The notes under the pieces: generated by a model
Database searches by the model: none
The model's input: only the letters and a program-made list of their open reading frames with translations
What the model was told of the DNA's origin: nothing
NCBI GenBank assembly: GCA_041552055.1
Contig: JBFELO010000001.1
Location: forward strand, 23,099 to 87,098
Length of the DNA stretch: 64,000 nt
From: Candidatus Sulfomarinibacteraceae bacterium
GTDB taxonomy: Bacteria; Acidobacteriota; Thermoanaerobaculia; Thermoanaerobaculales; Sulfomarinibacteraceae
Direction of reading: 5' to 3'
Shown: piece after piece, positions 409-50,089 of the stretch
Numbering within the stretch: the stretch's first letter is position 1
Layout: the number at the start of each line of letters is the position of its first letter
Program-made: the position numbers and the translations under genes

Positions 409-433
409 CCCGCGTCCGCGTCCGTGCCCGAAT
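409..433. repeat. hexamer-repeat arm ending in GTGCCCGAAT (left-arm-like copy of the CCGTCT hairpin-element family)
   Basis: cccgcgtccgcgtccgtgcccgaat. It shares the ...CCGTGCCCGAAT boundary with the copies at 12471 and 14349. No convincing right arm was found, so I treat it as a partial copy. Confidence 0.6.
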
Positions 434-549
434 GCGGTCGAAGATCGAAGACCCCTTCCCGCCCCTCTCATTCCTTCGTCTTCGTCCTCATTCTCATCGC
501 CATGGTCATCGTCATCGGGATCGCAGGCGATAGGATCTTGATACTGGGT

Positions 550-659
550 GCTGGATGCTGGATGCTGGACGGCGGATACTCGACGGCGGATACCTGACCT
601 CCCAACCAGACGCGAAGCCTTGGGGCGGGAGGGGGATCTAGCATCAAGCATCCAGCATC
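550..659. repeat. (GCTGGAT)x3 arm (550-568) with an imperfect inverted partner (640-659), enclosing a 14-bp direct repeat x2 (568-595)
   Basis: gctggatgctggatgctgg at 550-568. The reverse complement of 640-659 is gatgctggatgcttgatgct. gacggcggatac occurs twice, at 568-579 and 582-593. Confidence 0.8.
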
Positions 660-730
660 GGTTGTTGTGGGCTCCGAGCCCCTCGCCACGAGTCTCTCGA
701 CCCTTCTCTGGACGTGGAGGATCGTATCCA

Positions 731-1999
731 ATGCTGCACATCACATCCGAGATCGGACGACTCCGCAAGGTCCTGATGCACGAGCCGGGGGACGAGGTCG
801 ACCGGATGGTGCCTTCGATGATGGAGGATCTGCTGTTCGACGACATCCTGTTCGGGGACCGGGCGCGCGACGAGCACCGCCGTTTTCGCCGCCTCCTCCA
901 GTTGCTCGGAATCGAGGTCGTCGAGTCGCGCGATCTCCTGACCCAGGTCCTGGCCGAGGACGAGGTGCTCGACTGGCTGTGGGAGGTCCTGCTGCCGGAG
1001 CTGCCGTCCGAACTCCGCGACCGGCCTCGACAGATGACGGCGGAGCAGGCGGTGGGGGTGCTCGTGGGAGGAGTGGTCGAGGAAACGGCTCACGACCCCT
1101 TCGAGATCGACGAGCTTTTCCGCCTCACCCCGCTGCCCAACTGGTGCTTTCAGCGTGATCCACAGCTGGTGGTGGGTGACGGTGTCGTGTTCGCCGCCAT
1201 GGCGACGCCGGCGCGATGGCGCGAGGGCCTGCTCGCCCGGTGCCTCTTCCGGTTCCACCCGGAGCTCAGCTCGGCTCCGGTCATCCTCGACCCGCTGCAG
1301 CCGACCTCCGAGCGCATGCGTTACCTCAGCCTGCACCTCCCGTGCCTCGAGGGGGGTGACGCACTCATCCTGTCGGACGAGCATCTGGTGGTTGGGGTCT
1401 CGGAGCGCACCAACGCGGTCGGGGTCGAGCTGCTGGCCCGCGCGCTGGCCCGAGTGGAGAACGGCCCCCGATGGCTGGAGGTGGTCCACCTTCCCCGGCG
1501 CCGCGCCTACATGCACCTGGACACGGTCTTGACACAGCTCGATCACGACCTCGCACTGCTGTTCCCGCCGGTGATCGGCGCCACCGGTTCCGAGGCGGCA
1601 GACACCTACGAAATCGATCTCCACTCCAACGACCTGGAGCCGCGACACCGTGGCTCGCTGCTCGCGACCCTCGCCAAACGTGGGCTCAAGATCGAGCCGG
1701 TCGCCTGCGGGGGCCGCGATCCGCTCGCCCAGCAGCGCGAGCAGTGGACCGACGGCGCCAACGCACTCGCGCTGGCGCCCGGCGTGGTCGTGCTGTACGA
1801 CCGCAACGTGGCCACCGCCGAGGAGCTCGACCGGCGCGGATTCCGCATCGTCGAGGCCGAGGCCGTGCTGCTCGGACAGCAGGAGGTTGAACTCGAGGCC
1901 GGCCAACGAACCTGCCTGCTGCTCGCCAGCCACGAGATCTCCCGCGCCCGCGGCGGACCCCACTGCCTGACGCACCCACTGGTGCGGGATGACGCGTGA
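731..1999 (+). CDS. arcA: arginine deiminase
   Basis: Track ORF 548..1999. I start it at the ATG at 731 ([22 protein letters not shown]...). The family-typical N-terminus and the C-terminal [10 protein letters not shown] (catalytic Cys motif GG..C.T.P) are both present. Confidence 0.85.
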
Positions 2000-2103
2000 G
2001 GAGAGAATCGGAGATCAAGGATCAAGTAGCCAGTTCGGAACCCACTCCGAGTGGAGCCTTACCTGCCATCACATTTCATGGGCCACCGGAGGTCCGCTCA
2101 TCC

Positions 2104-48298: not shown

Positions 48299-48311
48299 CG
48301 CTCTCCTCCCC

Positions 48312-49763
48312 TCACTTCATCCCCCGCAGCACCTCGATCGCGCACCGCAGCCGGCGCCGGCACATCTCCCTGCCGACCACCGCCATGGTGTCGAACAGCG
48401 GCGGTGTTGCAGAGCGTCCGGTCACCGCGATCCGAACCGGCATGAACAGCTCCTTCGAGGTCCACTCGTGGCGCTCGCAAAACGCGCGCAGCGCGTCCTC
48501 GATGGTCGAGGCTCGCCAGTCGAGCAGTGGATCGAGCTGCTCCTCGACGAGGAGACGAAACGCCTTCGCGGTTTGGGCGGGCGTCCGTCCCTTGGCGACC
48601 AGGCGAGCGCGCGCGTCGTCGTCGTACACCAGGTCGCCGATGAAGAAGAACTGGCCATAGTCGAACAACGCATCGAGGGTGTCGATCCTCTCCCTCACCA
48701 ACGGCAATACCTGGAGCAGATTGGCGTCGCTCACCGCCTCTTCGCGCAGTCGCTCCAGCAGCTGCTCCGGCTCGAGCTGCCGGATGTAGCGGCCGTTCAG
48801 CCACGTCAGCTTGTCGAGGTCGAACACCGGACCGCCCAGGCTGACGTCCGCGAGTCGAAACTCCTCGATGAACTCCTCGCGCGAGAACTCATCCCGCTCG
48901 TCGGGCATGGTCCAACCCATCAGCGCGAGATAGTTGCACATCGCCTCGGGCAGATAACCCGCCCGACGGTAGTAGTTGATGCTGACCGGGTTCTTGCGTT
49001 TGGAGATCTTGGATTTGTCGGCGTTCCGGAGCAGCGGCAGGTGGCAGAACACCGGCAGCTGCCAACCGAAGGCGTGGTACAGCTGGACGTGCTTCGGGAG
49101 CGAGGAGATCCACTCTTCCGCGCGGATCACATGCGTGATCTCCATGAGGTGGTCGTCGACCACGTTGGCCAGATGGTAGGTCGGCAGCCCGTCCGACTTG
49201 AGCAGCACCTGGTCATCGATCTGGGCGTTGGCGAACCGGATCTCCCCCCGGAGCAGGTCGTTGGTCACCGTCTCGCCGTCGCCGGGCATGCGGAGGCGGA
49301 TGACGTGCTCCTCTCCAGCCAGCCGTCGTTGACGCGCCTCGTCCGCGGCAAGCGATCGGCAGTGTCCGTCATACCCGAGCTGAAGCTTCTGCCGTCGCTG
49401 CTCCTCGCGCAGCTCCTCGAGCCGTTGTCTGGTGCAGAAGCACGGGTAGGCGGCCCCAGAGGACACCAGCTGCTCGACGTGATCACGGTAGATGTCGGCG
49501 CGCTCGCTCTGCCGGTACGGACCGTGCTCGCCGCCGACGTCGGGACCCTCGTCCCACTGCAACCCCAGCCACCGCAGCGACTCGAGGATCATGCGCTCGC
49601 TTTCGGGGTTGCTCCGCACCCGGTCGGTGTCCTCGATGCGCAGCACAAACTGACCCCCGGCGTGGCGCGCCAGCGCGAAGTTGAACAGGGCCACGTAGGC
49701 GGTCCCCACGTGGGGGTCGCCTGTGGGGCTGGGAGCGATCCGGGTTCTGGTGTCGCCGGCCAT
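48312..49763 (-). CDS. gltX: glutamyl-tRNA synthetase
   Basis: [18 protein letters not shown] (HVGT variant of HIGH) and KISKR (KMSKS). Confidence 0.9.
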
Positions 49764-49815
49764 CTCGGATCTCCAAAAAAATGCCGCCTCGGGTACCGGC
49801 GGCGCGTTCGATCGT

Positions 49816-49907
49816 TGGCGGAGAGGGCGGGATTCGAACCCGCGGTCCAGGTTACCCCGGACAACTGCTTAGCAGGCAGCCCTGATCGACCACTCCAGCA
49901 CCTCTCC
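49816..49907 (-). tRNA. tRNA-Ser (anticodon GCU)
   Basis: Acceptor GGAGAGG/CCTCTCC, anticodon stem GCTGC/GCAGT with loop CUGCUAA, a long variable arm, and T-arm GCGGGTTCGAATCCCGC. CCA is encoded. Confidence 0.9.
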
Positions 49908-50017
49908 GGCCAGGGAGCGGTATTGTACGTGGGGCGCTGATGACTGTAAAGTGCGGAGAGATCTTGGGGTTCGGGGCTGATGGGTCGGGCGACAGGGCTC
50001 CATCGGCGGGTCCCCTG

Positions 50018-50089
50018 CCCGTCTCCGTCTCCGTGCCCGTCTCCGATCGCGACGCGGTTGGACGTTTCGGGCACAGAAACGGGCACGGG
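50018..50089. repeat. CCGTCT-hexamer hairpin element (family A)
   Basis: Reads cccgtctccgtctccgtgcccgtctccgat ... cgggcacagaaacgggcacggg. Lies between two divergent tRNA-Ser genes. Confidence 0.85.

Follow-up and report, generated by a model that had tools for sequence, protein, structure and literature searches.

Inverted arrays of CCGTNY hexamers form a clade-wide family of extragenic repeats in Thermoanaerobaculia

A single repetitive extragenic palindromic (REP) sequence, as found in Enterobacteria and Pseudomonas, is an imperfect palindrome of 20–40 nt with a conserved 5′ head, and in the inverted REP doublets called REPINs the spacing and the interior are conserved as well. The STRR heptamers of cyanobacteria are intergenic short tandem repeats, and the foldback (FB) transposons of eukaryotes have inverted arms made of short tandem repeats, with variable copy number and variable centres. 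The Neisseria DNA uptake sequence (DUS), GCCGTCTGAA, contains the hexamer CCGTCT and often occurs as inverted hairpin pairs in spacers; it is a single 10–12-mer that needs ...CTGAA and is found in genes and spacers, its pairs preceding T-runs and acting as terminators. Clade-wide intergenic TAACTGA heptamers, the function of which is unknown, have been described in Beggiatoaceae, Cyanobacteria and Bacteroidetes, with one indirect repeat among 170 sets (MacGregor 2015, PMC4679880). In Geobacter metallireducens, the repeats termed class 2 form 21 paired sites, each of three tandem TCTCCGTS[Y] repeats, the two members of a pair lying at variable distance; in Additional file 8 of the genome paper they are labelled “putative global regulator binding sites”, and binding of IHF/HU was suggested there without experiment (Aklujkar et al. 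2009, BMC Microbiol 9:109, PMC2700814). The present analysis concerns a stretch of 64,000 nt (the window) of the core chromosome of a Thermoanaerobaculia (Acidobacteriota) bacterium, and a family of inverted hexamer arrays in its intergenic spacers. The family is real and clade-wide, of the extragenic palindromic or intergenic short tandem repeat kind; that its members are class-wide palindromic repeats acting as REP/BIME-like DNA elements (BIME, bacterial interspersed mosaic element), and not as RNA genes, terminators or miniature inverted-repeat transposable elements (MITEs), is the reading adopted here, tentatively and at somewhat less than even confidence.

Each element consists of two hexanucleotide microsatellite arrays, (CCGTNY)n, inverted relative to each other, with fixed polarity and a unique centre. 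In the window, six copies have two arms; four more are one-armed or long-loop arrays. When the intervals were read, the six full copies proved to lie where a first-pass annotation of the same DNA had placed them and to have the architecture described there: CCGTCT-type hexamers in a row, as a rule closing with CCGTGCCCGA, are followed by an unrelated spacer and then by the reverse-complement run TCGGGCACGGAGACG.... The two perfect pairings that had been quoted are likewise correct; positions 40911–40924 are the reverse complement of 40955–40968 (14 nt), and 14356–14365 that of 14410–14419. Arms hold two to seven hexamer copies in a strict 6-nt period. Chance does not account for their number: the exact sequence CCGTCTCCGT occurs 14 times in the window against 0.43 ± 0.73 expected from dinucleotide shuffles, and with one mismatch allowed 36 times against 13.3.

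A species-representative genome collection was scanned with CCGTMTCCGTCTCCGTGCCCG, the 21-mer arm CCGT(M)TCCGTCTCCGTGCCCG, which recurred at no fewer than 106 loci and in at least 18 species-level genomes of the class Thermoanaerobaculia; most of the listed loci are in metagenome-assembled genomes (MAGs) labelled Thermoanaerobaculia, Candidatus Sulfomarinibacter(aceae) or “Holophagae”, and several are syntenic with the window at 67–78% nucleotide identity. In Streptomyces and Myxococcota the matches are not hairpins but long arrays on one strand, which apparently lie within open reading frames (ORFs); viral contigs gave no match to the 21-mer and thus no sign of a phage origin. The anatomy was surveyed in 810 kb, that is, the window and the 106 listed loci (L-numbered below), by collecting arrays of at least three CCGTNN units. 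There, 111 of 149 arrays are intergenic, though only about 17% of the surveyed DNA is non-coding. Their units are overwhelmingly CCGTCT and CCGTGC, also in arrays without the search pattern (consensus CCGTNY). Where two arrays of opposite sense lie within 150 nt, the C-rich one precedes the G-rich one in 22 cases and follows it in none, the nearest pair of the latter order being 588 nt apart. The loops, 21–104 nt long, are unrelated in sequence. Towards the loop the arrays end sharply, with ...CCGTGCCCGA on one side (...CCGA) and TCGGGCACGG... on the other (TCGG...), while the outer end of the arms is fuzzy because the number of hexamers varies.

The family corresponds to no known RNA family, terminator or MITE. 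The first-pass annotation had recognised no described repeat family in the sequence, and with respect to Rfam this stands: at gathering thresholds the window yields tRNAs only, and at E ≤ 1 none of the listed copies is matched, a weak hit to mir-598 at 428–498 (E = 0.77) being the only one nearby. A literature search for intergenic repeats of Thermoanaerobaculia or for these sequence strings likewise returned nothing relevant. Among the sub-threshold Rfam matches, two to “Plastid-psbl-rps4 3UTR RNA” run antisense to tRNA-Ser genes (49819–49872 on the plus and 50169–50218 on the minus strand); tRNA-like sequence within the model has almost certainly produced them as artefacts. The claim of novelty is nevertheless qualified by the paired class 2 repeats of Geobacter (PMC2700814), which are, as described in the supplement of that genome paper, the closest published description and a partial precedent. 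Both share the core TCTCCGT, the window arrays reading ...TCTCCGTCTCCGTG..., and both are paired on opposite strands at variable distance in tens of copies per genome; however, TCTCCGTS[Y] implies a unit of 8–9 nt repeated three times and not a strict 6-nt period repeated two to seven times, the host belongs to another phylum, and the comparison is with the published description only.

With REP, BIME and REPIN sequences the window family has in common that it is extragenic, high-copy and hairpin-forming, that it comes in inverted doublets and in mosaics with other short motifs, often between cistrons, and that its members are persistent chromosomal residents. Its arm, in contrast to a single REP, is a non-palindromic microsatellite, and unlike REPINs it has unique loops and no link to a REP-associated tyrosine transposase (RAYT) in the loci scanned. 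A REP assignment in the strict RAYT sense is not supported, a single arm being a non-palindromic (CCGTNY)n array without the conserved GTAG-type head tetranucleotide; what holds of the “REP/MITE-like” behaviour noted earlier is REP/BIME-likeness in the broad sense of dispersed, intergenic, hairpin-forming sequences of high copy number in inverted doublets. Like STRR and TAACTGA repeats, the family consists of tandem 6–7-nt units, mostly in spacers, in sets of two to six copies, and the unit is conserved throughout the clade; those repeats, however, are mostly direct and near start codons, whereas the window family is defined by inverted pairing and fixed polarity, a feature beyond the STRR/TAACTGA type. 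The hexamer CCGTCT is probably shared with the Neisseria DUS by coincidence; unlike the DUS, the window family consists of tandem hexamer arrays, and it lacks T-runs. Finally, FB transposons are eukaryotic and of kilobase scale, and some copies encode a transposase, while there is no evidence of transposition for the window family.

One idea is that the elements are non-autonomous mobile DNA (a MITE, a REPIN or something foldback-like), their arms being bound by a transposase whose gene lies at another place in the genome. Dispersed, multi-copy, inverted arms of fixed polarity would fit this idea, as would the variable presence of copies among relatives, and a composite of about 500 nt (see below), which conserves its order and junctions in at least nine copies, resembles foldback elements. 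The ends of the arms are, however, the reverse of transposon terminal repeats, being fuzzy outside and sharp inside, and as the loops are unrelated, whole elements are not being copied. Neither a target-site duplication nor a flanking direct repeat was seen at the elements, and alleles lacking an element look like deletions, not like empty target sites. MITEs proper were rejected for want of a common interior, of a uniform size and of defined outer ends. There is no transposase gene in the window (Pfam, 50 ORFs) nor, as the first-pass annotation had stated, one of the RAYT type. In favour of a mobile element, Y1 transposases do exist in the clade; in the wider search for RAYT/IS200-like genes a single Y1_Tnp gene was found in about 0.9 Mb of related loci (L037 4742–5188, 148 aa, PF01797, E = 1.2e-24), and it is flanked (region 4400–5300) by its own REP-like repeat CGTGAGCCCCGGATCTTGCGC, with three to four copies downstream and a related hairpin upstream. 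This repeat bears no relation to the hexamer arrays and occurs neither in the window nor in the other loci. The tblastn queries were IS200 TnpA and E. coli RAYT sequences, and a negative result with them is weak. Together with the lack of matches in viral contigs, this leaves a mobile element as the least probable of the explanations considered. Integron attC sites were also rejected, since the window carries housekeeping genes in conserved order and neither an integrase nor a cassette array.

How the elements change with time can be followed at the locus of a phosphodiesterase gene (PF01663; 12664–14259, minus strand), for which a graded series of orthologues (L110–L116) was ranked by amino acid (aa) identity to the window. 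In the window an element lies on either side of the gene, c14349 upstream and c12471 downstream. Both are present in L110 (87% aa); L112 (83%) has kept only the upstream and L111 (82%) only the downstream one. In L113 (66%) other tandem repeats occupy both sites, L114 (65%) combines the upstream element with another repeat hairpin downstream, L115 (62%) has neither, and in L116 (60%) the upstream element is absent and the downstream site has no spacer at all. Between the window and L110 the arms are 83–88% identical and the loop 62% (counted by hand). The G-arm of the downstream site reads (GGAGAC)4 in the window, GCAGAC-GGATAC-GGAAGC-GGAGGC in L110 and (GGAAAC)2(GGGTAC)2 in L111; the 6-nt period and CGG are retained, the remaining positions drift and the arrays homogenise. 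Such changes of whole hexamer units read as the signature of replication slippage. What L112 has kept at the site without the element is, by alignment, the last hexamer and the 3′ flank, the pattern expected of a deletion. Deriving insertion boundaries from filled and unfilled alleles was given up, since flanking sequences have diverged too far and the unfilled alleles resemble deletions; a resemblance of the L110 loop to the unfilled allele of L111 (14 of 26 positions) was judged not significant and dropped. Some old orthologous copies no longer beat shuffles in folding. JGI metagenome contigs encode a 100%-identical phosphodiesterase, and contigs from three different samples equal the window including array lengths, so the arrays are not hypervariable at that scale. 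The arms thus evolve by gain, loss and homogenisation of whole hexamers, and whole elements degrade through point mutations or are now and then deleted, while CCG phase, inner boundary and arm-to-arm complementarity outlast the sequence of loop and flanks.

A second site, the spacer between the genes of tRNA-Ser(GCU) and tRNA-Ser(UGA), carries an element in the window, in L041 and in L075, which represent three genera. A 26-nt arm segment, CGTCTCCGTCTCCGTGCCCGTCTCCG, is the same letter for letter in the window and in L041, although the loops cannot be aligned and the aligned flanking DNA is about 72% identical. In L075 (1–450) the tRNA-Ser(UGA) gene is inverted relative to the other two and lies between the C-arm (90–123) and the G-arm (405–440), the arms thus bracketing a 280-nt segment that holds a tRNA gene. 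The elements have, then, a long vertical inheritance, and they sit in any class of spacer, including upstream of promoters.

These histories can be set against the view that the arrays are a passive by-product of mutation, hexamers arising by slippage, being inverted by template switching and being tolerated only in spacers, with neither recognition nor function. The drift of unit number and type, the homogenisation of arrays, the many other 6–7-nt tandem repeats in the same spacers, and the fact that copies show no bias for a spacer class and decay and disappear are all in keeping with it. De novo slippage, though, predicts units that differ from locus to locus, whereas one boundary, GTGCCCGA, and one set of units (CCGTCT, CCGTGC) turn up again and again, at hundreds of loci and in no fewer than 18 species; the polarity is fixed (22:0), the 26-nt segment is identical in two genera despite its diverged flanks, and array length is the same in the contigs from three samples. 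A purely passive origin is for these reasons held to be improbable. That the arm sequence is kept class-wide while loops and flanks randomise points to an undescribed trans-acting factor or to templated repair.

One such factor could be a global regulator or nucleoid protein, the arrays being its operators and controlling neighbouring promoters, much as Aklujkar et al. guessed for IHF/HU. It speaks for this possibility that the arms are conserved in sequence beyond what pairing requires, that copies lie some 50–75 nt upstream of -10-like boxes, one of them near tRNA-Ser promoters in three genera, that the published description of the Geobacter repeats (PMC2700814) offers a precedent, and that a HU-family gene is encoded in the window (56146–56439). 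The conserved tRNA-Ser(GCU) promoter, TTTACA-17-TACAAT, lies beyond the element both in the window and in L041, which places the element upstream of that promoter; but with the same -35 box the distance is 68 nt in the window and 21 nt in L041, and this lack of a fixed spacing counts against operators. The spacer classes argue in the same direction: the surveyed arrays are distributed without bias over tandem (18 on the plus and 26 on the minus strand), convergent (20) and divergent (22) spacers, so that convergent spacers, which have no promoter, carry arrays as often as divergent ones. Moreover, the downstream genes are unrelated housekeeping genes, and copies are lost in close relatives without gene rearrangement. 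Operator arrays are accordingly considered an unlikely, though not a far-fetched, explanation.

Action at the level of RNA, that is, as intercistronic mRNA stabilisers, processing sites, or factor-dependent (e.g., Rho) bidirectional terminators or insulators, is a further alternative. Stable stems are predicted, some copies are intercistronic in the conserved pairs prfA-prmC and tkt-tal, a palindrome would serve both directions, and the C-rich 5′ arm, which would be exposed first in the transcript, may resemble a Rho-loading site. The folding itself is uneven. RNA-fold z-scores range from -0.6 to -6.4 with copy and strand; as DNA, four of the six full copies clearly beat shuffles (z about -2.3 to -4.2), and the hairpin quality of the window copies is accordingly uneven. 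In tandem spacers the sense strand has no folding advantage (22 hairpins, energies on both strands), on which ground a strand-specific RNA structure was rejected. Copies upstream of identified or presumed promoters in divergent spacers also speak against an RNA; several positions (the tRNA-Ser spacer and the divergent spacers of pyrF/phosphodiesterase and dnaX) are probably untranscribed. Intrinsic terminators were rejected because T-runs are missing and a number of copies occupy divergent spacers: no T-run follows any window copy, and a terminator scan called none of the three elements in 8000–15000, yet it called 10020–10044. This latter site, on the minus strand downstream of rpmE, is canonical in appearance (CCCGCGCGACGGACGGTCGCGCGGG, then TTTCTGTTTG) and suggests that the organism uses ordinary hairpin-plus-U-run terminators, from which the elements differ in lacking a U-tract. 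With no Rfam match either, and with a soil family (see below) that reverses the arm order, against a general C-arm-first rule, a function as RNA hairpins appears as doubtful as a passive origin.

The first-pass annotation had also stressed that all copies have one orientation, with the C-rich arm on the plus strand. To a large extent this is symmetry: an element of the type 5′-C-arm...G-arm-3′ reads alike on both strands, which makes the statement trivially true of two-armed copies. What remains is an asymmetry between the arms, the plus-strand C-arm being the longer or more perfect array in seven of seven window elements; the exact 10-mer CCGTCTCCGT is on the plus strand in 13 of 14 cases, and the one-armed window arrays are also C-rich on that strand. 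Relatives do not reproduce this: for 88 intergenic elements of related genomes (95 with the window's seven), the choice of dominant arm was not significantly tied to gene strand or to local GC skew (Fisher p = 0.22 and 0.35), the 8-kb blocks examined being too short for the replichore scale. The bias in the window may be chance (p about 0.016) or an effect at replichore scale, invisible in such blocks.

A metagenome scan for the reverse order, AGACGGAGACGG-N14-44-CCGTCTCCGTCT, returned 31 loci (L117–L147), mostly on contigs from soil metagenomes in which TTTTCGG(AGACGG)n, a short unique loop and (CCGTCT)nCCGAAAA succeed one another. Some carry the outer flank GGCCAAACGGAC...GTCCGTTTGGCC, and after the single arrays of L085 (from an unclassified Acidobacteria MAG) and L097 (from a Vicinamibacteria MAG) comes a flank, GTCCGTTTGGCGATC, that is nearly identical. 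The sharp array end (...CCGTCT-CCGA) is common to both families, facing the loop in the window family and outward in the soil family. A T-run before and an A-run after the hairpin are the opposite of what a bidirectional terminator has. The existence of these 31 loci means that polarity is a trait of the family and not a physical necessity, and a universal C-arm-first rule was rejected because of them. It is conceivable, if unlikely, that the arrays are recognition sites of a conserved protein system which builds or maintains inverted arrays around arbitrary spacer DNA; they would then represent a new bacterial class of “foldback” cis-elements, with a polarity specific to each family (C-first in Thermoanaerobaculia, G-first in Vicinamibacteria-like soil bacteria), maybe shared with Geobacter, the arms being held tighter than the aligned flanks.

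As REP/BIME-like elements, the arrays would act as DNA, either as duplex or as an extruded hairpin or cruciform. Their arms may be kept through recognition by a sequence-specific protein, for which an architectural or nucleoid protein or a domesticated recombinase are candidates, and templated correction of one arm by the other may contribute to their maintenance. The effect on the cell would then be architectural (cruciform formation, protein binding, buffering of supercoils between transcription units) and not the control of particular genes. There is a parallel in E. coli, where BIMEs have an architectural effect together with gyrase and IHF.

Several observations weigh against this reading. 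Two full copies, c12471 and c35693, are no better than shuffles as DNA hairpins, and both cruciform extrusion and protein binding are putative. No binding protein or mobilising enzyme was identified in the loci surveyed, and the reading accounts neither for the uniform arm asymmetry of the window (seven of seven) nor for the origin of new copies with conserved arms and unique loops. In the tRNA-Ser spacer, the promoter of tRNA-Ser(UGA) was not confidently located, and the element could lie in the 5′ leader of that gene. The arm sequence is also not always held, as units in the tkt-tal spacer differ between the window (CCGCGT) and L063 (CCGTCT), and gain and loss among close relatives mean that individual copies are dispensable.

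Genes of the window were called with a codon-bias scorer, 50 ORFs being annotated with Pfam, and cross-checked against the JGI gene calls of an identical contig. It encodes lpxK, kdtA, prfA, prmC, rpmE, pyrF, tsaD, hslUV, uvrD, glmS, tkt, tal, recR, dnaX, gap-pgk-tpi-secG, glnS, gltX, lptD, uvrA, smpB and four tRNAs; the genes adjoining the arrays are unrelated housekeeping genes in conserved order. On this gene map all ten arrays are intergenic, as had been claimed. The accompanying statement that nearly every spacer over 100 bp has a copy was exaggerated; an array is present in 9 of 11 spacers of at least 200 nt and in 10 of 34 of at least 60 nt.

Four tandem spacers carry elements. Between prfA (8828–9898, minus strand) and prmC (7761–8651, minus strand), c8708 (8708–8791) has the C-arm CCGTCTCCGTCTCCGTATCC, a 39-nt loop with a sub-hairpin of its own and the G-arm TCGGGCACGGAGACGAATACGGATACGGG. 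Between the stop of the phosphodiesterase gene and the start of a GT2 gene (11679–12404, minus strand), c12471 (12471–12547) combines a C-arm (CCGTCT)4 CCGTGCCCGA and a loop with a short, degenerate G-arm, CAGAGACGGAGACAG. The spacer between tkt and tal holds a single C-type array at 30064–30103 (plus strand), CTCCGTCCCCGCAT(CCGCGT)3CCGAAC, which lies 25 nt upstream of the transaldolase start; the orthologous spacer of L063 has a CCGTCT array, which runs into the Shine-Dalgarno sequence, and GTGCTC. No hairpin of the window is better than that of the two-armed c40909 (40909–40975), with RNA z-scores of -4.4 on one strand and -6.4 on the other; the element shares its spacer with a single array (CCGTTC)5.5 at 41001–41033 (plus strand). 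This array is absent from the first-pass list, whose three partial copies (409, 20600 and 30064) are real.

Divergent spacers hold a further four. The single C-type array at 409–433 (plus strand), CCGCGT CCGCGT CCGTGC CCGA(AT), CCGCGTCCGCGTCCGTGCCCGAAT, is embedded in the 535-nt tandem-repeat mosaic of spacer 196–730. The two-armed c14349 (14349–14419) separates the start of the phosphodiesterase gene from that of pyrF (14494–15213, plus strand), c35693 (35693–35775), two-armed with a degenerate G-arm GCGGGCACGGAGAC, lies upstream of dnaX (34086–35654, minus strand), and c50018 (50018–50092), also two-armed, lies between tRNA-Ser(GCU) (49816–49907, minus strand) and tRNA-Ser(UGA) (50134–50221, plus strand), its start lying upstream of the tRNA-Ser(GCU) promoter, 68 nt from the -35 box. 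The only convergent spacer with an element is that of pgpA and dapF, where in a long-loop pair (20600–20739) the C-array CCGTTC CCGTAC CCGTCC CCGTTC CCG (20600–20628) pairs with GGGACGGGCACGGAG (20725–20739).

Strongly conserved boxes, GGTGTACCATTGGCGGCGATG and GGTGGTACATTCGATAGGGAGATG, directly precede the start codons of the phosphodiesterase and GT2 genes (window minus strand 14262–14282 and 12407–12432; orthologues L110–L116). A -10-like TACCAT or TACATT lies only about 10 nt before the ATG of these genes, a distance which suggests that their mRNAs are leaderless or have a very short leader.

Hexamer arrays belong, as one module among several, to a repertoire found throughout the clade, whose long spacers are mosaics of 6–7-nt tandem repeats; other modules include (CAGYGR)n, (GATGCTG)n, (GTGCTC)n, (GAAATCC)n, (AACGTTC)n, (GGTGCAA)n and CCACCCACCC. 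The divergent spacer 196–730 contains GGTGCAAGG-type repeats, GTCGCTG x4, CCACCCACCC, GATGCTG x4, TCATCG x4 and two copies of the 14-mer ACGGCGGATACTCG, and several of its modules recur in reverse complement next to a tRNA-Glu gene at 42677–42780 (CCTTGCA x3.7, GGTGGGTGGGG, GCATCC repeats and CAGCATCCAGC). In L042, a nested palindrome of 410 nt consists of CCGTNN arrays, CAG-type arrays, a centre, CTG-type arrays and ACGGNN arrays. The composite repeat of about 500 nt occurs in at least nine copies across three MAGs with fixed module order and junctions (in L001, L004, L009, L027, L030, L033, L067 and L080; e.g., L030 3460–4070). Its first half runs GGCTCATCCGGAATTGCATGGGATGG; CCGTCT array; GGATTCAG; (CAGYGR)n; conserved centre GCGACCGCGGCATGGCCACCTCCGGGTCGTTCA, and its second half (CYRCTG)n; GGGTGG(GAAATCC)n; CCCATCCC..GGATGAGCC; (AACGTTC)n. 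Read on the opposite strand, the centre offers a Shine-Dalgarno sequence and an ATG, from which a putative small Arg-rich or repetitive ORF could start. Elsewhere, three CCGTCT arrays (L049, minus strand, ~370–500 of the reverse complement; L050 1709–1850 and 4483–4620) lie at a fixed distance from a repeated coding segment, which on the opposite strand encodes the Ser/Thr-kinase-like motif FEREAKVLASLNHPNIATLYGLE; these arrays may truncate or extend kinase paralogues.

Compared with common extragenic palindromes the family is unusual in that its arms are true microsatellites and that the same arm sequence is used across a bacterial class. For the annotation of Thermoanaerobaculia MAGs it matters that elements occupy most spacers of at least 200 nt and give rise to spurious ORFs of the GDGD, PSPS, TETE and RRRR types. 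In practice, binning could use the family as a lineage marker, and strain typing could use the array lengths as loci. If a binding protein exists, the families of opposite polarity would be a natural test of how the arrays are read.

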